A stretch of 64,000 nucleotides of DNA from Verrucomicrobiia bacterium (GCA_035489575.1 DATHJY010000013.1:91346-155345); one strand, 5' to 3'. Counted from the stretch's first letter, positions 5,386-63,611 are shown. Translations and numbers: made by a program. Notes: a model not told the origin generated them from the letters alone.

Positions 5386-6408
5386 ATGACGAGAAAATCA
5401 AAAAAAACCAACAAGCCACTCCTCAGCCACCACCGGCACACAGCCAAAGTTTTGCCACACCACCATACCTCGTGGCCTTTTGTGGTTTTATTATTACTGA
5501 TGGTAGGCGTGGTACTAGTGCAGGCTACCTACCAAGCCCGAGCAGCTGATATGGCGGTAACTGCCACAGCAGAGGGGCCCGTGCCAACAGTACCGGCAGT
5601 TATTACGGATCCTCAGGCTGGCGCGGCTGTTACAGACATGCCCATACAAGTTGCCGGCACTTGCCAAGCACCGTATGTAGTGAGGCTGTACCGCAACCAA
5701 GTCTTTAGCGGCTCTGCCCAGTGCCAGACAGACAATACCTTTCGGATCCTGACTGATCTTTTCGAGGGAAGAAACGAACTAGAAGCTCGCATATTTAACT
5801 TTGCCGACCAGGAGGGCCCAGCGCCCGCCAAAATTATCATCATGTACGACCCACCGTCTGATTCACCACCAAGCGGCACCGTGGATGAGTCATCTGGAGA
5901 AATTCAGGAGCCATTTCTGCTAACTACCGACCAATTTTTCAAAGCAAACCAGGACAAAACACGCATAGACTGGACCTTTGGGATAACCGGCGGCACCGGG
6001 CCGTATGTCGCAGAAGTAGATTGGGGGGATGGAGATAAATCGACGGCTAAAGGCCTCGAGACAAACAGTTTTTCGGTGTCACATGAATATACGAAAAAAT
6101 CGGCAGCTCGGGCCTACTACAAAATGCAGGTCACCGCAACAGACACATCAGACCATACGGCACACCTGCAAGTTTTTGCCGTCCTGAACTATTCGGTGGA
6201 AACAGGCGGGGGAGGTGGTCTGTCAGCAGGTCCTATATCGACAATACCACCGCCCGCTGGCATGTCACAAAATGTTACTTATATATGGGGAGCCTACACC
6301 GCGACCAGTTTGATGGCTATTAGCTTTTGGCTGGGTCAGCACGTTATTGCCGCCGGCATTGGTGGACATACATGGCCGCTCAAACTGAGGTTTCCCAAAT
6401 TCTGGTAG
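5386..6408 (+). CDS. Membrane-anchored protein with a PKD/Ig-like module
   Basis: It has a basic N-terminus plus a TM helix (WPFVVLLLLMVGVVLV). A PKD-like core reads WTFGITGGTGPYVAEVDWGDGDKS...HEYTK. A C-terminal hydrophobic segment is present. Confidence 0.5.
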   Translation: MTRKSKKTNKPLLSHHRHTAKVLPHHHTSWPFVVLLLLMVGVVLVQATYQARAADMAVTATAEGPVPTVPAVITDPQAGAAVTDMPIQVAGTCQAPYVVRLYRNQVFSGSAQCQTDNTFRILTDLFEGRNELEARIFNFADQEGPAPAKIIIMYDPPSDSPPSGTVDESSGEIQEPFLLTTDQFFKANQDKTRIDWTFGITGGTGPYVAEVDWGDGDKSTAKGLETNSFSVSHEYTKKSAARAYYKMQVTATDTSDHTAHLQVFAVLNYSVETGGGGGLSAGPISTIPPPAGMSQNVTYIWGAYTATSLMAISFWLGQHVIAAGIGGHTWPLKLRFPKFW

Positions 6409-27773: not shown

Positions 27774-27921
27774 CTGATTCTTTTATTTCTAATTGATTAG
27801 AGTTAACCAAGCCTGTAAGATGGGCTGGATACCGGTTAGGCATTGCCTATCAAGTAGATAGAACACGGCCTAAATACCCCGGTATTGCTATTTTTAATCG
27901 GAAAACCCCTAAGGAGGGTTA

Positions 27922-28923
27922 GTGTTGCGTTTTCGGGTTGCTCCGCTTTGTGGTGCCGCTTTGTTGGTTGTGGGCCTGTCGGCTTGCGGCCTTCCCAAGC
28001 ACGATGAGAACTCCGGTGCCCAGGTGGACATCGTGGCAGCCGGCGACAGCTACAGCACCGGGCAGGGCTCTGCTGGTGCCTACTACGCCAACGGTGACGG
28101 TGATGCCAAGAGCCCAGACGATCCTCGGACCACCTGGCGCCAGGGCACACCAGTAGCAGGCGACCTGGGGTGTCACCGCAACCACGACGCGGCAGCCGAG
28201 CAGCTGTGGCGTGAGACAGACAGCGCTGGCTCGTTCATCAACGCCTCGTGCAGCGGTGACGTCATTGCCAACCTGACCGGCAGCAATGTACCGCCGCAGT
28301 TGAACGATTTCGATGTGGCCCAGCGAGAAGATGTCGAGCTGATCACCATCACGGCTGGGGGTAACGACCTCCATTTCACGAGCATCGTGGCCAACTGCTT
28401 CTTCCCCGGCGTCGCGGCCAATGGTCCGTGTCGAGAGCAGCAGGACATTGCCCTCGACCTCCTGGACGCAAGCGGTGGGAAGAGCCAGATCCAGAGCCAG
28501 ACCCAAGCGGCTCTGGAGCACCTGGGTCAGCAGTTCCCGAATGCACTCGTGGTGCTGATCGGCTACCCCCTCATCTTCGAGGGAAGTTCGTTCGTGCTGC
28601 CGGCTGACACCACGCATGCCGTGTTCGACCCAGCTGCTGCCATACTGGACGGCATCGAGCTGCTCAACTCGCAGCAGGCCCAAGTGGTGGACGACCTCAA
28701 CGACTCGTTCGGCGAGAAGCGGTTCGTGTTCATGCCACTCCACGAGGACGACAACATGGGCGACTTCGACGGACACGGTCTGGGCGGAGCAGGGCAGGAC
28801 TTCCTGAACGATCTCAGCGCCACGCCGGATTCCAGCGAGTGGGTCCATCCCAACGCCGCCGGTACGGCCGCCATGGGCGATGCCCTCCGCGACCTGCCAG
28901 AGGTACAGGCGTTGTTCGCCTAG
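27922..28923 (+). CDS. SGNH/GDSL-family lipase/esterase lipoprotein (G+C-rich gene)
   Basis: GTG start lies 5 nt after AAGGAGGG. Lipobox is LVVGLSAC. SGNH blocks are present: VAAGDSYSTG, ITAGGNDL, WVHPNAAG. One 60-nt sample counted by hand gave about 70% GC versus about 50% in the flanks. Confidence 0.7.
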   Translation: MLRFRVAPLCGAALLVVGLSACGLPKHDENSGAQVDIVAAGDSYSTGQGSAGAYYANGDGDAKSPDDPRTTWRQGTPVAGDLGCHRNHDAAAEQLWRETDSAGSFINASCSGDVIANLTGSNVPPQLNDFDVAQREDVELITITAGGNDLHFTSIVANCFFPGVAANGPCREQQDIALDLLDASGGKSQIQSQTQAALEHLGQQFPNALVVLIGYPLIFEGSSFVLPADTTHAVFDPAAAILDGIELLNSQQAQVVDDLNDSFGEKRFVFMPLHEDDNMGDFDGHGLGGAGQDFLNDLSATPDSSEWVHPNAAGTAAMGDALRDLPEVQALFA

Positions 28924-28979
28924 CTTCGCAGCTGGGTGCAGCAAGTGTTTATCCGATTACCGCTGGGGTAACTCAGTAG

Positions 28980-34448: not shown

Positions 34449-34631
34449 GGTTTTCTCCTATTAATTGTCTGTCCTCATCATACACCAGCTGCCGTTTACA
34501 CTTTCGGTTTGAGCCCGTTTTCGCTACACGACTTTAGCATTCTCGCGTCGATTCCATAGTACCCACCGGATGCGCGTCCAGATGTGATATGGGGTGGCGA
34601 GAGAATGCTAAAATCGTGTAAGATAGGCACT

Positions 34632-36161
34632 ATGGCTACCTTAAAAGAACTGCGCGACGAACGCTTACGAAAACTAGAAGAGCTAAAAAAGCTCGACATC
34701 AACCCATACCCGGCCACCACCTCCAGAACCCACACAGCCCAAGAAGTCGCTGACAAGTTCGAGGAACTGCAGGGACAAACCGTCACGCTCGATGGTCGTC
34801 TTATAAATACCCGCAAATTTGGCAAGATCGCTTTCTTTGTACTAAAAGACGCATCCGCAACCATCCAACTCTTCCTCAAGCATGACACCCTAGCAGGTCT
34901 AGAGGCGCCAAACAGTCAGCTTGGCTTTGAGCAGATCAATTTGCTAGACCCTGGTGATTTTATCGAGGCCACCGGACCTGTCATAAAGACGCAAACCGGA
35001 GAAATATCTATCGACGTGCAGAAGCTTCGGGTGCTAACCAAGTCGCTCCGGCCCATGCCCACAGAGCAAGACGGCTTCACTAATAAAGAAGAACGCCTCC
35101 GCCGACGCTACATAGACACAAATGTTAATAAGGACGTTTACGAGCGTTATCTGCGGCGCAGTACCTTTTGGCAAGCAACACGCCACTTCTTATTAGATGA
35201 AGGATTTGTAGAAATAAACATTCCCGTGCTAGAACTCACCACCGGTGGGGCAGACGCCACGCCGTTTGTCACCCATATGGACGCCCTAGACCAAGATTTC
35301 TACCTGCGTATTAGTCACGAGCTACCACTGAAGCGGCTGCTGGTCGGGGGATACGAAAAAGTATTTGATATCGGCCCACGTTTTCGCAACGAGAACTATA
35401 GCGACGAACACCTGCCAGAGCATGTGGCAATGGAATGGTACTGGGCTTATGCCGACTGGGAAAAGGGCATGGAACTAACTGAAAGACTGGTACGTGCTAT
35501 CGCCGATAAGACCTGGGGCAAGCGTGCATTCAAGCTCGCCAACGGCATGGATCTAGACCTAGGAACCGATGACCAGAAGTGGCCACGTATTAGCTTTGTA
35601 GATGTAATCCAAGAGCACTACGGCCTGGACGTCTTCACCTGTACGCTTGACCAAGTCAAAGAACAGCTCAAGAACCATCAGATAGAAGTAGAAAAAACCG
35701 AGAACCGCTCTCGTGGCATAGATAAGCTCTGGAAAAAAGTACGCACGACTATTGCCGGACCCGCCTTTTTGGTAGACATACCCACCTTTTTACAACCGCT
35801 GGCCAAAACCCAGTCCGGCAAGCCGGAGCTGACCGAGCAGTTCAACTTGCTCCTTGGCGGCAGCGAACTCTGCAAGGCCTATTCAGAGCTGAACGACCCA
35901 GTAGATCAGCTCAATCGCTTCAAAGAGCAGCAAGCCCTTCGTGACGCCGGTGATGACGAGGCCATGATGCTCGACGTTGATTATGTAGAAGCGTTGGAGT
36001 ACGCCATGCCACCAGCCTGCGGCTTTGGATTCTCGGAGCGCTTATTCTGGTACCTAGAAGGCGTAACCGCCCGCGAAGGCGTGGTCTTCCCCCAGCTCAG
36101 AAGGGAAGTAGACGAAGTCACCAAAACCATCTATCCCGAACTGTATAAAGACAAAAGTTGA
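34632..36161 (+). CDS. lysS: Lysine--tRNA ligase, class II
   Basis: Frame of ORF 34584..36161; ATG 34632 (MATLKELRDERLRKLEELKKLDINPYP). OB-fold region: VTLDGRLINTRKFGKIAFFVLKDASATIQLF. Class II motifs: FRNE, ELNDP, GFGFSERL. Confidence 0.9.
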   Translation: MATLKELRDERLRKLEELKKLDINPYPATTSRTHTAQEVADKFEELQGQTVTLDGRLINTRKFGKIAFFVLKDASATIQLFLKHDTLAGLEAPNSQLGFEQINLLDPGDFIEATGPVIKTQTGEISIDVQKLRVLTKSLRPMPTEQDGFTNKEERLRRRYIDTNVNKDVYERYLRRSTFWQATRHFLLDEGFVEINIPVLELTTGGADATPFVTHMDALDQDFYLRISHELPLKRLLVGGYEKVFDIGPRFRNENYSDEHLPEHVAMEWYWAYADWEKGMELTERLVRAIADKTWGKRAFKLANGMDLDLGTDDQKWPRISFVDVIQEHYGLDVFTCTLDQVKEQLKNHQIEVEKTENRSRGIDKLWKKVRTTIAGPAFLVDIPTFLQPLAKTQSGKPELTEQFNLLLGGSELCKAYSELNDPVDQLNRFKEQQALRDAGDDEAMMLDVDYVEALEYAMPPACGFGFSERLFWYLEGVTAREGVVFPQLRREVDEVTKTIYPELYKDKS

Positions 36162-36163
36162 AA

Positions 36164-36216
36164 CCCTCCGACCAGTGATAAGCATTGGCTTCGCCAATGA
36201 GTATGTAGTCGGAGGG
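36164..36216. terminator. Hairpin CCCTCCGAC-(35 nt)-GTCGGAGGG between convergent lysS and the G+C-rich membrane gene; copy 1 of 2
   Basis: 9-bp perfect arms at 36164-36172 and 36208-36216. The flanks AAACCCTCCGACC ... GTCGGAGGGTA are shared with the copy at 36782-36836. Confidence 0.45.
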
Positions 36217-36229
36217 TAATGGTGTTCTG

Positions 36230-36595
36230 TCAGCGATCGCAGCTGCAGCGCGTGCTGCGCAGATGGGCGTGGTAGTTGACGAAGCAGTTAACCAAAATCA
36301 TGGCCCATAGACCTTCGATGTCGTGCGCGAGCGCACAGATCAACCCGATCAGCAGGTAGCCCGCGGCGTAATGCGCCCCGTGCACCAGAGGCAGCATGGC
36401 CGAACCCTCTCGGACGCGCATAGCACCCCACGCCACCAGGATGAAGGCCCACAGGCCGCCAGCGTTGTGATCGCCCAAGACGGCCAACAGGATGGCCAGC
36501 AGCCCTCCCACGTAGGTCAAAAAGACCGCCTTGGTCATCGCATCGATGGAGCTGAGCCAGCTCGTCGCGTGGTCACTATCGTTTGCTGTGGTCAC
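36230..36595 (-). CDS. Small polytopic membrane protein (G+C-rich), paralog 1
   Basis: Frame of ORF 36230..36667; GTG 36595 lies 3 nt after AGGAGGG. ...GGLWAFILVAWGAMRV...GLWAMILVNCFVN is paralogous to 36855..37187. Confidence 0.5.
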   Translation of the reverse strand: MTTANDSDHATSWLSSIDAMTKAVFLTYVGGLLAILLAVLGDHNAGGLWAFILVAWGAMRVREGSAMLPLVHGAHYAAGYLLIGLICALAHDIEGLWAMILVNCFVNYHAHLRSTRCSCDR

Positions 36596-36781
36596 AATCC
36601 CTCCTAGGGATATACGCTGGATACGGTAGAAACCCGTGGACCAACTCGGCCCGAGCACTGATGACATATCAAACTACAAGAACACCTTGCTTAAAACAGA
36701 AGTTAGAGACTTATGCTAAGCGTAGATATTATAGAACTTTTTACCATACCCATCCATAAATATGTCTAATAAAGAATTAAA

Positions 36782-36836
36782 CCCTCCGACCTGTCATACA
36801 GTATTGGCCGAAGCCGCATGCAGAAAAGTCGGAGGG
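36782..36836. terminator. Hairpin CCCTCCGAC-(37 nt)-GTCGGAGGG; copy 2 of 2
   Basis: 9-bp perfect arms at 36782-36790 and 36828-36836, directly 3-prime of gene 36855..37187. Confidence 0.45.
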
Positions 36837-36854
36837 TATAGGTGTGGTGGTGGG

Positions 36855-37187
36855 CTAGTCGCTCAGTCCATCGACCAACGCGTCGGCGAGCCAGTTGACC
36901 AAGATCATGGCCCACAGCGGCTGAACGCTCTCCACGTAAACGCAGATGACGCCGATGACGGCGTAGCCAGCAGCCATGGCTGCGCCGTAGAGCAGAGGGG
37001 AAACCTCGCCCTTACGATCGATCTCCTGAACGCCCCAGGCCACCAGGATGAGGGCCCACAACGCACCTGCGTTGCTGGTCTCGATGGCGGCGACGCCGAT
37101 GGCGGCCACGCCAGCGACAAGAACCAGCAGCCTCGCAGCCATTGCGCTGTTCGCGGACTGCCGCGGGGTATTGTCAGTGGTGTCCAC
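36855..37187 (-). CDS. Small polytopic membrane protein (G+C-rich), paralog 2
   Basis: GTG start lies 6 nt after GAAGGAG. ...AGALWALILVAWGVQEI...PLWAMILVNWLAD. Confidence 0.5.
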   Translation of the reverse strand: MDTTDNTPRQSANSAMAARLLVLVAGVAAIGVAAIETSNAGALWALILVAWGVQEIDRKGEVSPLLYGAAMAAGYAVIGVICVYVESVQPLWAMILVNWLADALVDGLSD

Positions 37188-37280
37188 TACGGACTCCTTC
37201 TGATTCGGGGTCAGTCATGCTGACCGTTCCAACAAGAACACCTCACTTGCAGGTAGCTTGTACCAGTATCAAGCAGGGAT

Positions 37281-37309
37281 ATAATAGAATTAATTTTCTA
37301 TATTGGCAA
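37281..37309 (-). promoter_or_regulatory. Promoter TTGCCA-17-TATTAT (minus strand) upstream of the G+C-rich paralog 2
   Basis: On the minus strand, TTGCCA is at 37309-37304, the spacer is 17 nt, and TATTAT is at 37286-37281. Confidence 0.45.
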
Positions 37310-37310
37310 T

Positions 37311-37586
37311 TTAGTTATCTTTTTTGATAAGCTTGTAGGTTTTGTCTAAGTAAATCAGATTTTGTATGAGCTGTTGCAGCACCGCTGCCTCGGCACGGTT
37401 CTCTACGGTCAGCTCATCACTAATAGAATCGAGCAAGGTAGCCAAAGTTATAAAATAATCACCAGATCGTACGTGGACGATAAGATCCTCTAGCTCACGA
37501 GTGTCGCTACCATCGTGAAGAAGCCAGGTGGGTGCCGAATCATGTGCCAACACCGCCGAAGGGGGATCTAGCGCATAATCAGCCAC
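37311..37586 (-). CDS. Small hypothetical protein (91 aa) downstream of radC
   Basis: Frame of ORF 37311..37673. GTG 37586 overlaps the radC stop (cGTGGCTGA). The sequence reads MADYALDPPSAVLAHDSAPTWLLHDGSDTRELEDLIVHV... Confidence 0.35.
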   Translation of the reverse strand: MADYALDPPSAVLAHDSAPTWLLHDGSDTRELEDLIVHVRSGDYFITLATLLDSISDELTVENRAEAAVLQQLIQNLIYLDKTYKLIKKDN

Positions 37587-38337
37587 GGGGCGTCTCTTCC
37601 ATAATGCTGGCGAATGAATCTTGGTTGATAATAAGGTGATCCAGAATATCAATACCCAACACCCGGCCGGCATCCACCAGCTGGGCAGTGACTATACGGT
37701 CAGCGGCTGTGGGCTCTAGGCTGCCAGAAGGATGGTTATGAGCAATGATAATTGCCACAGCGCCATAGATAAGCGCAGGCTGAAATACTTCGCGGGGGTG
37801 CACGATGTTTGCTGTCAGGCTGCCTACCGAGATGACCTCGTCATGGATAACTTCATGGCGGCTATTTAAATAGAGTCCCCGAAGTTGTTCCTTCTGGCTG
37901 GTGCCCATGTCCTTGAGGTACACATGAGCCTGCTTGGCGCTGCGTACATAGGTAGCCTTGCCTTGCCGGCTCAAGAAGTATCGGCGGCCCAGCTCAAAGC
38001 TGGCAACTATTTGACAGGCCTTGCCAAGGGGAATATTGAGCGCCTCCGATAGCTTGGCCGGGTCGGTCTCGTTCATGATGGCAGTCTCGCCGTATTCTTT
38101 GAGGATGCGGTGGGCCATAGACAAGACATTTTCTTTTCTAGTGCCCACATTCAGGAGTACCGCTACTAGCTCGGCCACGCCAAGAGCCTTTGGGCCGAGC
38201 AGTTGCAACTTTTCCCGCGGCTTTTCATCGGTGGGTAGGTCGCTGAGGGGTGTCAGCTCATATTCTTTTTCACCATCTGCAAGCATGAAGATCCCTCGGT
38301 CATGCAAAAGATATTTTTCGTCTACCACCAATGTCAT
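37579..38337 (-). CDS. radC: RadC-like JAB/MPN domain protein
   Basis: EKPREKLQLLGPKALGVAELVAVLLNVG...IIAHNHPSGSLEPTAADRIVTAQL...ILDHLII. TATAAT (38349-38344, minus) lies 6 nt before ATG 38337, consistent with a leaderless mRNA. Confidence 0.8.
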   Translation of the reverse strand: MTLVVDEKYLLHDRGIFMLADGEKEYELTPLSDLPTDEKPREKLQLLGPKALGVAELVAVLLNVGTRKENVLSMAHRILKEYGETAIMNETDPAKLSEALNIPLGKACQIVASFELGRRYFLSRQGKATYVRSAKQAHVYLKDMGTSQKEQLRGLYLNSRHEVIHDEVISVGSLTANIVHPREVFQPALIYGAVAIIIAHNHPSGSLEPTAADRIVTAQLVDAGRVLGIDILDHLIINQDSFASIMEETPRG

Positions 38338-54906: not shown

Positions 54907-55019
54907 GAAACACATTACACCGGACCTTGCATTTTCACTTTCGTCCTTTTGGACTCATCAGCATGAATGCACATTCATGGAGTGAAATGACAAGCAGAAT
55001 ATAAAAGAAAGTGGCGCGG

Positions 55020-55067
55020 ATGGGGCGACGAAGTATGAAGCCTAAGGCTCCTTCTTCGTCGCCCCAT
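55020..55067. terminator. 14-bp perfect inverted repeat directly 3-prime of the G+C-rich membrane gene
   Basis: ATGGGGCGACGAAG (55020-55033) and CTTCGTCGCCCCAT (55054-55067). Confidence 0.45.
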
Positions 55068-55072
55068 CGCGA

Positions 55073-55423
55073 TCACGCTCCGCCGAGAACCAGCAGACTG
55101 GTGCCGATACCCAGCAACACGGAGCAGGTGGCAGAGAACAGGGCGTACCGTGGAGTGTTGGGAGACGACTTGCCGATCTGGAAGAACGCCAGGACCGCGA
55201 AGAAGTACTCGGACACCCAGAGCAGGACCGCCACCAGAGTGGACGAATCCAGATCGGACTGCCTCCAGAGCACGAAGACCGCAACCGCCTCGACGATGTT
55301 AGCCACGACAGCCCAGAAAGCTCTCGCTGGAGTGAAGGTGTCCTTCCTGCCGATCAGCAACACGGAGCCCAGGAGGCCAAGCACCACAGTGGTGTACAGC
55401 CAGATCAGGGAAAAAGTGTACAT
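55073..55423 (-). CDS. Small polytopic membrane protein (116 aa, G+C-rich)
   Basis: Four hydrophobic helices (LIWLYTTVVLGLLGSVLLI, FWAVVANIVEAVAVFVLW, LVAVLLWVSEYFFAVLAFF, LFSATCSVLLGIGTSLLVLG). Codons are GC3-rich. Confidence 0.5.
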   Translation of the reverse strand: MYTFSLIWLYTTVVLGLLGSVLLIGRKDTFTPARAFWAVVANIVEAVAVFVLWRQSDLDSSTLVAVLLWVSEYFFAVLAFFQIGKSSPNTPRYALFSATCSVLLGIGTSLLVLGGA

Positions 55424-55735
55424 GTCAGAACCTTGTCTTCTCGATCTCGACCACTATCCGCTCGTGGAGGTCGCCTACGCCAAAGGGTAGGTGTGCTTTC
55501 TTTTGCACAAAGATGAGATACAAACCCAGCCTATGCTGGACTCATAACTCACCTTTATGCGTCTGCTTGTCAAAGTACTCATTACATCTGTAACAAGTTA
55601 GTTTATTATAACATAAAAAATACTACTATGCAACCGTTACCGCACACATCTGTCTGGGCTATGAAATATTTTATAGTTGCCAATATATAAGTAGTCATAA
55701 TGGACCGTGCCAACCTAATAAGGAAGGAGGCTATC

Positions 55736-61477: not shown

Positions 61478-62494
61478 TTGATACGAGTCGTGACTGCATT
61501 GTGCACTGCTGTGGTGGCCCTCCTGGCCACAGCAAGCACTGCACATGCAGAGACCCTGGACGACACAGTGGAAGCCCTCAAGGCCAGTCCCGTGTACGTC
61601 GCACCAGGCACCGAAGGAACAACCCCCGACACCGCCGGAGAACTGCTGCATCAGATACATGAAGGAGACTACGTCTTCATCATCATGCTGCCGCAGCAGG
61701 CCATCAGCGAGTCGGGAGAAGAGCCAGCCGATCTGACGGCGTTCGCGCAGCGAATCGACGAGGCTCTCGGTGGCAAGAACATCATCGGTTTATCCGTCGG
61801 CGATCAGATCGTGGCCTATTCGGCCATCCTGCCCGCCGGCGAGGCGACCGACCTGATGGATCGAGCCATCAGCGTTTCGACCAACCAGAGTGAAACCCTG
61901 ATTACGTTCATCCGGAATGTCCACCACTGGCAGGATCGCAACCCCGAGGCTGCGGCCTCCAAGTCGGCCAAGCCAGAAGATGAACCACCCCTCGTCCCAC
62001 TTGCCGTGGGCTGCGTGGCAGTGGTGCTTGCGGCAATCGCCACGATTGTTGTGTTCACCAAATCGTCACGGAGCGAAGACTCAGGGCCGGCATTCCATGC
62101 GCCCCGCAAGGTCAGCGACATCCTGCGAGACATCCTGCAGCTAGCGCCGCAGGTGAACCGCAGCGACATGGAGCAGCTGATCACCCAGATCGTCTGGGAT
62201 TGTGACGCATACTTCGAGCGCCAGGTGCCCCTCGGCACCACGGTCAACGAAGATAGTGACAATTTCAAGAACCATCTGGGCAATCTTCGGGGACTGATCA
62301 TCAAGTACATCGACGTGCAGGACTGCCCGCGCTACTACGACAATCCCCGTGAACTCATGGAGAGCGGCGAGAACGCGATGCGAGGTTTTGCAGAGATGGT
62401 GCTCGACGATATCAGGGACGGCAACACGAGCAGTCTTGCCGTTTACCTGGTCAACGCCGACATCATGAACGCAGAGCGCACCTGGAGCAAGTAA
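61478..62494 (+). CDS. Secreted, membrane-spanning hypothetical protein (G+C-rich, actinobacterial-looking)
   Basis: TTG start follows a strong SD. Signal peptide VVALLATASTAHA. An extracytoplasmic ~150 aa is followed by the TM helix LAVGCVAVVLAAIATIVVF and a cytoplasmic C-terminal domain. Codons are GC3-rich. Confidence 0.55.
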   Translation: MIRVVTALCTAVVALLATASTAHAETLDDTVEALKASPVYVAPGTEGTTPDTAGELLHQIHEGDYVFIIMLPQQAISESGEEPADLTAFAQRIDEALGGKNIIGLSVGDQIVAYSAILPAGEATDLMDRAISVSTNQSETLITFIRNVHHWQDRNPEAAASKSAKPEDEPPLVPLAVGCVAVVLAAIATIVVFTKSSRSEDSGPAFHAPRKVSDILRDILQLAPQVNRSDMEQLITQIVWDCDAYFERQVPLGTTVNEDSDNFKNHLGNLRGLIIKYIDVQDCPRYYDNPRELMESGENAMRGFAEMVLDDIRDGNTSSLAVYLVNADIMNAERTWSK

Positions 62495-62630
62495 GCCACG
62501 GGCGCTAGGCCTTCTTTCAACTGAAACAACATTTCTCCCCAACGGCTCATGACACATGTGAGCTGTGCCACCCGACCCTCATCCGAGAGTCACGAACCTT
62601 CCAAACCCAACAACCGCACCTGGAGGTGCA

Positions 62631-63611
62631 GTGAGTTCCAACCGAAAGCTCAAGCGAGTCGCCTCAGCATTGGTGGTGACCGCCATCCTGACCAGCGTCG
62701 GTGCCGCGTGCTCCTCGAGCACCGCCAACACCTCGTCCATGTGCAGTTTCGTGCTGGGCGATGGCAGCAAGGGCCACGACCGCAAGGTCCACGACGTCGT
62801 CTACCCCGACGACAACGTCGACTACAACAGCGATACCGAGGACGTGCGCTACGTCCCCTGCAACGCCCGGAACTTCATCATCAACGACGGTTCCGTGACC
62901 TACGGCGCTGACCAGAAGGTCGGTGACCGAAGCAACCCCTCGGTGGGCTACACCAGCGATGGCACCAAGGTCAACGGCTTCACCAGCTCGTACTGGACGC
63001 TCAACCAGGACGAAGAGGCCTTGCGCGCCTTCTGGGCCGTCTGCGACAAGTACAAATGCTCCAGCGACGATGCCGAGTCCGGCGATGCCAACTTCTCCAC
63101 CGAAGGGTGGAACGGCATGCTGGCGGAGAACTTCGGCCCCTCGGTGGACGATGCCTTCAGGATCGCTGTCGCCGAGGTGGACGACGAGGTCTGGCAACAC
63201 CCCACCCCGGAGCTCGAGCAGCAGATGAGCGACCGCATGTCAGCGGCATTCGCCGACGCCGTGCGGGCCAAGACCGGCTACGAGCTGGACATCTTCTGCG
63301 GATCGGGCAACTCCGGCTGGGACGACGTCGACAAGCCCGGCGAGGGTGACTTCTTGTGCACCAGCGTGCGCATCGAACTGGACGGCATCATCGCCGCCAA
63401 CTCGGGCACCCAGCAGAGCAGCGAAGAGGCCACCCAGGCTCAGAGCGAGCTCGAGAGCAACGCCGCCCGCCTGGCTGCCGCCGAGGCCCTCTACGGCCCC
63501 AGCGCCGGCTACTGGCTGGGCCTCATGGACGTGCTGGACAAGTGCAAGGGCGAGGAGTCGCACTGCGACGTGAACATCGGCAACCCGCCGGGCGTTCCCG
63601 TCAGCCAGTAG
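62631..63611 (+). CDS. Lipoprotein of unknown function (G+C-rich)
   Basis: Frame of ORF 62565..63611. GTG 62631 lies 3 nt after GGAGGT. The signal + lipobox reads MSSNRKLKRVASALVVTAILTSVGAAC. The mature part is Cys-paired and Asp-rich. Confidence 0.55.
   Translation: MSSNRKLKRVASALVVTAILTSVGAACSSSTANTSSMCSFVLGDGSKGHDRKVHDVVYPDDNVDYNSDTEDVRYVPCNARNFIINDGSVTYGADQKVGDRSNPSVGYTSDGTKVNGFTSSYWTLNQDEEALRAFWAVCDKYKCSSDDAESGDANFSTEGWNGMLAENFGPSVDDAFRIAVAEVDDEVWQHPTPELEQQMSDRMSAAFADAVRAKTGYELDIFCGSGNSGWDDVDKPGEGDFLCTSVRIELDGIIAANSGTQQSSEEATQAQSELESNAARLAAAEALYGPSAGYWLGLMDVLDKCKGEESHCDVNIGNPPGVPVSQ

Follow-up and report, generated by a model that had tools for sequence, protein, structure and literature searches.

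A stretch of 64,000 nt from a Verrucomicrobiia bacterium (GCA_035489575.1 DATHJY010000013.1:91346-155345; hereafter the window, at its full length) carries two small genes for related membrane proteins, copy 1 and copy 2, which lie between the lysyl-tRNA synthetase gene lysS and the radC operon. The reading that we favour, with moderate confidence, is that they belong to two complete, separately transcribed gene units that arose by an old tandem duplication. Both genes and all parts of the units are read on the minus strand; every element that an initial annotation of this DNA had named was found at its place, and the orientation was corrected to that strand. Each unit would consist of a σ70-type -10 box, a leader containing the box AGGTGTTCTTGT, a strong Shine–Dalgarno (SD) sequence with a GTG start codon, an open reading frame (ORF) for a protein of ~110–120 aa, and a 3' stem-loop. 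The stem-loop, which is long, interrupted, G+C-rich and followed by a U-rich tail, would act both as an intrinsic terminator and as a stabiliser of the 3' end, and the downstream one would probably also stop the convergent lysS transcript. The products are predicted to be four-helix inner-membrane proteins in which a two-helix hairpin with LWA(L/M)ILV at its end is present twice, through internal duplication. The shared leader box suggests that both genes answer to the same regulator, and the two proteins, having the same topology, could assemble into homo- or hetero-oligomers that act as a scaffold or sensor in the membrane. The analogy with LiaI and LiaF suggests a possible link of the pair to envelope stress.

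Duplicated units and their age

BLASTP aligns the proteins of copy 1 and copy 2 over a 61-aa core with 52% identity (E 5e-16), and 45 of the 110 residues aligned over the full length are identical (41%). Together with the SD sequences AGGAGGG and GAAGGAG, this bears out the initial description of two paralogous small membrane proteins, each with a strong SD and a GTG start. The start of copy 1 is placed at the GTG at 36595, because a syntenic contig from a second sample (L001) does not conserve the longer, ATG-started version in the ORF list (36230-36667), and the NCBI-annotated protein HTE58366.1, 99% identical to copy 1 over its full length, has 121 aa.

The similarity passes beyond the coding region at both ends. 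The alignment of the two copies begins with the -10 block and reaches to the T-rich tail; as had been proposed, the whole unit was duplicated and not the ORF alone. The conserved blocks at the 5' side are, in order, TTCTAT[A/T]ATATC with the -10 hexamer in it (TATAAT in copy 1, TATTAT in copy 2), GCTT a few bases further on, AGGTGTTCTTGT 37–40 nt past the -10, and the SD; they are followed by the coding core, by ACACC before the hairpin, by the hairpin itself (ACCCTCCGAC...GTCGGAGGGT) and by the T-rich tail. The repeat spacing is 553–556 nt for the 5' elements and 607–620 nt for the coding and 3' elements, a difference due to the longer leader of copy 1. The promoter of copy 2, TTGCCA-17-TATTAT (37309-37281, minus strand), comes directly after the stop codon of an upstream 92-aa ORF; it had been picked out in the initial annotation, and a consensus scan matched it at 10 of 12 positions. 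In L001, the -10 block of copy 2 is kept with TATCAT as its hexamer, and the promoter block of copy 1 is also conserved.

The leader motif reported as common to both copies is an exact 12-mer, AGGTGTTCTTGT, which occurs once in each leader and has no third exact copy in the 64 kb. It is kept in three of the four leaders of the window and L001, the box of L001 copy 1 having one substitution and a 1-nt insertion. Outside the box, the copy 1 leader is poorly conserved in L001 and diverges between the two genomes faster than the coding sequence. Candidate roles for the box are an operator, a site of RNA–protein contact, or an SD-like (G/A)AGGUG followed by UUG. A riboswitch or other described leader RNA was rejected as unlikely, because the leaders gave no Rfam match even at E <= 10, their folding is not significant (z scores of -0.67 for window copy 1 and 0.03, -2.18 and 0.74 for the other three, so that three of the four are indistinguishable from shuffled sequences) and they diverge rapidly outside the box.

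A further observation concerns the UUG that stands 3 nt after the SD-like (G/A)AGGUG of the leader box (36676-36695 and 37224-37243 in the window, minus strand; 5975-5995 and 6530-6560 in L001). It directly precedes UAG, giving a start-stop, in window copy 1 and L001 copy 2, and in window copy 2 it begins a mini-ORF of 6 codons; L001 copy 1 reads GUG-GGU-UGA instead. This arrangement may be due to chance or may be a ribosome-loading element.

At the 3' side, hairpins of 55–57 nt with a common 10-bp stem, whose arms are 35–37 nt apart, begin 12–17 nt after the stop codons. That the same hairpin follows each gene, as the initial annotation held, is upheld by the identity of both 10-nt arms and by the exact stem 9-mer CCCTCCGAC, found four times in 64 kb, all within the two hairpins, when ~0.5 occurrences are estimated by chance. 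In each hairpin, an outer stem of ~12 bp is followed by an internal loop and then by an apical mini-stem, which is CAUUGGC-GAA-GCCAAUG in copy 1 and bears a cUUCGg tetraloop in copy 2. On the minus strand, the folding free energy is -37.7 kcal/mol (z -7.6) for the copy 1 hairpin and -29.8 kcal/mol (z -4.0) for that of copy 2; among the 63 gene 3' ends of the window the two rank 4th and 7th in stability, and T makes up 7 of the 12 nt that follow either stem. The gene strand continues with UUUCAACUUUUG and UUUAAUUCUUUAUU, whereas on the opposite strand a T tail is missing from hairpin 2 and is weaker at hairpin 1 (5 of 12 T). In L001, the outer stem of copy 2 has an A-to-G change that gives a G.U pair, and the inner stem of copy 1 has one compensatory change from G-C to A-U and one U.G wobble; both wobbles pair only in sense-strand RNA. 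Given their position after the stop codon, the T-rich tails on the gene strand, the strong folds and the wobbles valid in the sense RNA, the hairpins are best read as predicted intrinsic terminators or 3' stabilisers. The tail of the copy 1 hairpin (36142-36161, minus strand) overlaps the last six codons and the stop codon of lysS on the plus strand, so that the same bases serve as coding sequence for lysS and as the predicted terminator tail of copy 1. This hairpin adjoins the lysS stop codon, as had been noted, at a spacing of 2 nt in place of the 3 nt first given.

The view of the hairpin as an unusual signature was not sustained: it sits where a terminator sits, 12–17 nt after the stop codon and with a T-rich tail on the gene strand, and the small gene at 55073-55423, which is unrelated to the pair, has an equally long 3' hairpin of different sequence. 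A covariance model (R1), built from the four hairpin copies (two from the window and two from L001), scored the copy 1 and copy 2 hairpins at 88.4 and 87.9 bits, respectively, and found no further copy in the 64-kb window or in ten loci carrying relatives of the proteins. At gathering scores, Rfam gave two tRNAs and nothing else in the whole window, and it gave no match in the region of the two units at E <= 10. The bare stem pattern had more than 120 metagenome matches, none beside a gene of the family and none similar beyond the stem; a viral scan gave 22 more, of which 20 have one identical hairpin, again unrelated beyond the stem. Matches unrelated in loop and context are expected by chance for a pattern that short. 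The viral hairpin, 58 nt long and identical in the 20 contigs (among L132-L153 of IMG/VR; e.g., L132 8939-8996), is a conserved element there: its outer stem, ACCCTCCGGC...GTCGGAGGGT, is that of an L001 copy, its loop is unrelated and TCTATTT follows. The match of its stem to the window is coincidental.

The gene at 55073-55423 (minus strand; HTE58385.1) had itself been put forward as a third paralogue, which the comparison does not support (hhalign probability 0.4%). It encodes a 116-aa membrane protein, with a G+C content at third codon positions (GC3) of 0.80, and its layout (54960-55640) is like that of the two copies, with an AT-rich upstream region, in which TATAAT lies near 55600, and, at the 3' side, a very strong extended hairpin (55006-55070) followed by CACTTTCTTTT. 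For the 121-nt 3' region, the folding free energy is -52.6 kcal/mol (z -6.7). Long interrupted stems therefore follow at least one other small gene in this genome.

The age of the duplication was estimated from L001, which carries radC, a 92-aa ORF, copy 2, copy 1 and a convergent lysS, whose product has the Pfam tags tRNA_anti-codon and tRNA-synt_2. Both copies are thus found there in the same order, with their leaders and hairpins, and the neighbours of the pair are lysS, the 92-aa ORF and radC in both genomes; the intergenic regions are ~88% identical to those of the window. The copy 2 orthologues are 87% identical, with a synonymous divergence (dS) of 0.23 and a ratio of non-synonymous to synonymous divergence (dN/dS) of 0.31; for copy 1 the values are 0.48 and 0.22, respectively. 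Such ratios mark both copies as real genes that are kept by purifying selection. The paralogues differ from each other by a dS of ~1.5, and their third positions are identical at 0.43, vs 0.36 expected from composition: the synonymous sites are saturated and the duplication is old. The hairpin region is nevertheless 66% identical between the paralogues, with both 10-nt stem arms identical. Non-coding motifs that are better kept than synonymous sites are probably functional, and their persistence reflects either selection or homogenisation by conversion.

Table 1. Features of the two units and their neighbours, in window coordinates
Feature	Coordinates	Strand	Remarks
lysS (class II lysyl-tRNA synthetase), convergent neighbour	34584..36161	+	from the ORF list
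Copy 1 3' hairpin and T-rich tail TTTCAACTTTTG	36142..36219	-	arms 36208-36217 / 36163-36172; inner 7-bp stem CATTGGC/GCCAATG
Copy 1 coding sequence, 121 aa	36230..36595	-	GTG start at 36595, SD AGGAGGG
Copy 1 leader box AGGTGTTCTTGT	36676..36687	-	40 nt downstream of -10, 80 nt upstream of GTG
Copy 1 promoter block TTCTATAATATC	36725..36736	-	-10 TATAAT (36728-36733), no good -35
Copy 2 3' hairpin and T-rich tail TTTAATTCTTTATT	36765..36840	-	arms 36828-36837 / 36781-36790; apical cUUCGg mini-stem
Copy 2 coding sequence, 110 aa	36855..37187	-	GTG start at 37187, SD GAAGGAG
Copy 2 leader box AGGTGTTCTTGT	37232..37243	-	37 nt downstream of -10, 44 nt upstream of GTG
Copy 2 -10 TATTAT	37281..37286	-	in shared block TTCTATTATATC (37278-37289)
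Copy 2 -35-like TTGCCA	37304..37309	-	consensus match; start site predicted
radC operon	37311-38337	-	

The ORF list also holds long ORFs antisense to G+C-rich genes, at 36762-37223 (+), 55011-55490 (+) and 27919-28944 (-). They are most likely artefacts of GC-rich sequence poor in stop codons, and not genes.

A rare family of four-helix membrane proteins

The AlphaFold2 model of copy 2 (predicted local distance difference test score 88, predicted template-modelling score 0.77) contains four helices, at residues 10-37, 40-58, 64-85 and 89-109. Lysine and arginine are found in the N-terminus, the second loop and the C-terminus, in both copies and family-wide, with none in loops 1 and 3 of the copies, a distribution from which both ends are predicted to be cytoplasmic. 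The two halves of the protein are homologous (hhalign probability 97%, E 9e-11), each half being built of a helix, a short polar turn and LWA(L/M)ILV. An antiparallel pair of opposite topologies, of the small multidrug resistance (SMR)/Fluc type, was considered and rejected, since the bias in lysine and arginine is the same in the two copies (4 and 6 inside, 0 and 0 outside).

The family is very sparsely represented. An exhaustive profile search of 1.84 billion representatives returned 42 at E <= 1e-3, a profile word search 19 clusters, word-indexed searches only six close proteins and the GTDB species representatives only one further locus. The named sources are one Patescibacteria metagenome-assembled genome (MAG) and the window's own MAG. 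Members have ~100 aa; elsewhere the gene is present in a single copy, on contigs of 39–45% GC and among unrelated neighbours, which are also variable in the six other genomes compared. The initial annotation spoke of a protein family of unknown function, in agreement with the fact that Pfam has no model devoted to it. With the window proteins, no Pfam or NCBIfam model reached its cut-off, NCBIfam giving only scattered weak matches, and a sequence-profile search of the PDB gave only TspO, at E 0.46.

The closest described domain is LiaI-LiaF-TM, the four-transmembrane (4TM) domain of the Bacillus envelope-stress proteins LiaI and LiaF, which has a small stand-alone form, as in LiaI, and whose usual partners, fused or neighbouring, are Toastrack, PspC, PspA and two-component genes (PMC11237479). 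Its Pfam model, LiaF-TM (PF22570), is matched by 7 of 29 family members at E <= 0.1. The six member alignments that were inspected and that of window copy 2 keep one register, running from profile positions 2-7 to 84 of 98, save for the sixth, which stops at 70. The protein P0019 scores 28.8 bits and is the sole member above the 27-bit gathering cut-off. These matches, with one above the cut-off and a constant register, support a remote relationship of the family to the LiaI-LiaF-TM domain, as judged from profile similarity, and not membership for the window proteins.

Several observations were made on individual members and on the genome. The 159-aa member P0011 has an N-terminal extension (…AQLVERRIYTANVAGSIPASS…) that reads like the translation of a tRNA gene; its start was probably called too far upstream, and a tRNA probably lies immediately before the gene. 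In the contig L125 (4667-5309), the family gene shares 8 nt with the end of the 113-aa ORF upstream of it, in an operon-like manner, and lies near a tyrosine recombinase gene and a gene resembling that of a type IV secretion system coupling protein, the only hint of a mobile context for any member. The window also carries cohesin/dockerin and PG_binding_4+DUF3152 genes. The window MAG (record HTE58364-HTE58385) is labelled by NCBI as 'Verrucomicrobiae bacterium', whereas the other named member comes from Patescibacteria, and this taxonomic label may deserve a check.

The two-unit reading and its alternatives

A number of points weigh against the reading as two separately transcribed, terminated units of LiaI-like genes. 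Promoters, 3' ends and monocistronic status are predictions made from sequence, and copy 1 has no convincing -35 element. The hairpins are not called by a simple terminator scan, because 35–37 nt separate their arms, and the U-tracts are interrupted, broken after 2–3 U (in UUUCAACUUUUG and UUUAAUUCUUUAUU; UUAAA... in L001). Whereas terminator stems usually change through compensatory substitutions, the four copies here retain one and the same 10-bp stem sequence, a hint of sequence-specific recognition or of gene conversion. A third syntenic genome (JGI 3300078620, contig of 39,372 bp) carries radC, an 89-aa ORF, a 113-aa ORF, a 115-aa ORF and a convergent lysS, but its two small genes are 48 nt apart, vs ~260 nt in the window. 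As only 48 nt separate them, the internal module of hairpin, promoter and leader seems to be absent there and is thus not universal. Neither the 113-aa nor the 115-aa protein was returned by the family searches, and the two genes could represent the pair in bicistronic form or be other genes that occupy this slot. Regarding the proteins, PF22570 gives copy 2 13.7 bits (E 0.12), below the cut-off, and does not match copy 1; no PspA, PspC, Toastrack or two-component partner was found beside any member, according to the Pfam tags of the neighbours; and Foldseek returned nothing from the PDB below E 0.5.

The retained stem sequence bears on a possible, if rather unlikely, alternative, in which the stem CCCUCCGAC/GUCGGAGGG and the leader box are sequence-specific sites that control both paralogues beyond, or instead of, termination, with an RNA-binding protein, a small RNA, an RNase or a DNA-binding regulator as possible partners. 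The sequence of the stem, and not its pairing alone, is identical in four copies in the face of saturated synonymous sites, and similarity between the paralogues extends to the 3' half of the loop. The 12-nt leader box is exact in both and unique to them in 64 kb. In addition, both elements have SD-like features: a GGAGG in the stem is sequestered by CCUCC, and the (G/A)AGGUG of the box has a UUG 3 nt later. However, four sequences from only two close genomes carry low statistical power, the window holds no extra copies of either motif that would define a regulon, and distant homologues lack both. The leaders, moreover, do not fold significantly (z of -0.7 to +0.7 in three and -2.2 in one) and have no Rfam match. 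A narrower version, which we regard as very unlikely, would have the stem CCCUCCGAC/GUCGGAGGG and the AGGUGUUCUUGU box act as matched cis-elements, read by a dedicated post-transcriptional regulator of a Patescibacteria-specific LiaI-like envelope pair; if true, this would be a new small regulatory RNA module and not a plain terminator and promoter.

The origin of the genes was explained in the initial annotation by the capture of a foreign high-GC gene that was put under native AT-rich promoters and then duplicated, a scenario that we consider unlikely. The composition on which it was built is as described: the copies have a GC content of 0.62 and 0.64, vs 0.51 for the window, and their coding parts are strongly GC3-rich (0.80 and 0.81, vs 0.56 ± 0.08 for the long ORFs of the window), while the flanking promoter regions are AT-rich. 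Five other envelope-protein ORFs without Pfam domains share a high GC3 (0.68–0.87) in the window, and the genome may hold a class of imported genes. Yet the duplication is old, and a GC3 of 0.8 in both copies and in two genomes (dS 0.2–0.5) is the opposite of amelioration. The other members whose DNA was read are all on contigs of 39–45% GC, one of them labelled Patescibacteria, and no high-GC donor is visible among them. GC3 is above that of the neighbouring genes in several of these relatives (0.47 vs 0.23; 0.57 vs 0.39), so part of the bias travels with the family. No mobility genes lie beside the pair, and no relatives of the family were found on plasmids, phages or viral contigs. Recent capture is therefore unsupported, given the saturated dS of ~1.5, the GC3 of 0.8 kept in two genomes and the lack of plasmid or phage copies; an ancient transfer between lineages, or a gene-specific codon bias, may account for the composition.

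Among the other high-GC3 ORFs are those at 27922-28923 (+; ~0.68), 61478-62494 (+; 0.73) and 62565-63611 (+; 0.87), whose N-termini resemble signal peptides or those of lipoproteins; none has a Pfam domain, and one has a GDSL-like 'AGDSYSTGQG' motif. Together with the small membrane genes, these three ORFs form a high-GC3 class of envelope proteins in a genome of 51% GC; the class could have arisen by transfer or through expression-linked bias.

The non-coding similarity could also stem, although this is distinctly unlikely, from gene conversion between the neighbouring copies, in a form of concerted evolution, and not from their common ancestor. The conserved patches are short and sharply bounded, and at one position of the tail the two window copies share a T where the two L001 copies share an A (GGGTTT vs GGGTTA), which is a concerted pattern. 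The 48-nt gap in the third syntenic genome further means that the intergenic module was gained or lost at least once. Conversion tracts would, however, homogenise the adjacent coding sequence, which is saturated except where the protein is conserved, and the patches coincide with the -10 box, a fixed leader distance and the terminator stem.

Finally, it is extremely unlikely that the hairpins are a mobile or recombination palindrome (REP, a repetitive extragenic palindrome; MITE, a miniature inverted-repeat transposable element; or an integron attC site) that mediated the duplication: an imperfect palindrome of 55–57 nt after each ORF is superficially like a gene cassette, but there are only two copies in 64 kb and two in the 12-kb L001 locus, both units come with a promoter of their own, and there is no integrase or transposase nearby. 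An attC site was rejected because the arms ACCCTCCGAC/GTCGGAGGGT are followed by TT(T/A)(C/A)A and lack the core sites RYYYAAC/GTTRRRY, and REP and MITE elements because no dispersed copies exist in the 64 kb or in L001 beyond the two in each. There is no integrase among the named neighbours (a VOC-family protein, lysS, radC and an EgtD-like methyltransferase), and the small ORFs have no Pfam match.

If the reading as two duplicated units is right, a compact, uncharacterised 4TM family of ~40 sequence clusters joins the small membrane proteins of ultra-small bacteria, with a possible remote link to the LiaI/LiaF envelope-stress domain. The locus offers a clean natural example of a -10 block, a leader box and a terminator stem that outlast silent-site saturation after duplication, which makes these non-coding elements good candidates for experimental dissection. 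The gene architecture is ordinary and opens no long-standing question; some interest attaches to the protein family and to the unusually well-kept non-coding motifs. The oddities of the hairpins are their invariant stem sequence and their interrupted U-tracts.

Comparison with known systems

The window proteins resemble LiaF-TM in having four transmembrane helices in ~90 residues, whereas the LWA(L/M)ILV signature and a clear two-fold internal repeat mark their family as a separate and very rare one. Repeated two-helix hairpins are also found in DUF308/HdeD, and two members of the family weakly match DUF308 and the HdeD model of NCBIfam. These matches are well below threshold (E 0.03–0.07; 6e-4 at best for NCBIfam), there are two repeats here, and the locus has no acid-resistance context. 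HdeD is usually described as larger.

Paired SMR and Fluc proteins are encoded by tandem genes whose ~110-aa 4TM products form antiparallel heterodimers. The window pair shares with them the arrangement of two adjacent paralogous genes for 4TM proteins of ~110–120 aa; it differs in having neither sequence nor fold similarity to them and no membrane-embedded charged residue.

The 3' hairpins are like intrinsic terminators in their G+C-rich stem right after the stop codon, their U-rich tail on the gene strand and their very stable folds, and hairpin 1, shared with the convergent lysS, is also like a bidirectional terminator. They depart from the usual form in that the arms stand 35–37 nt apart, with an interrupted extension that carries an apical mini-stem, and in that the U-tract is broken after 2–3 U; the stem itself is identical in paralogues that are otherwise saturated at silent sites.

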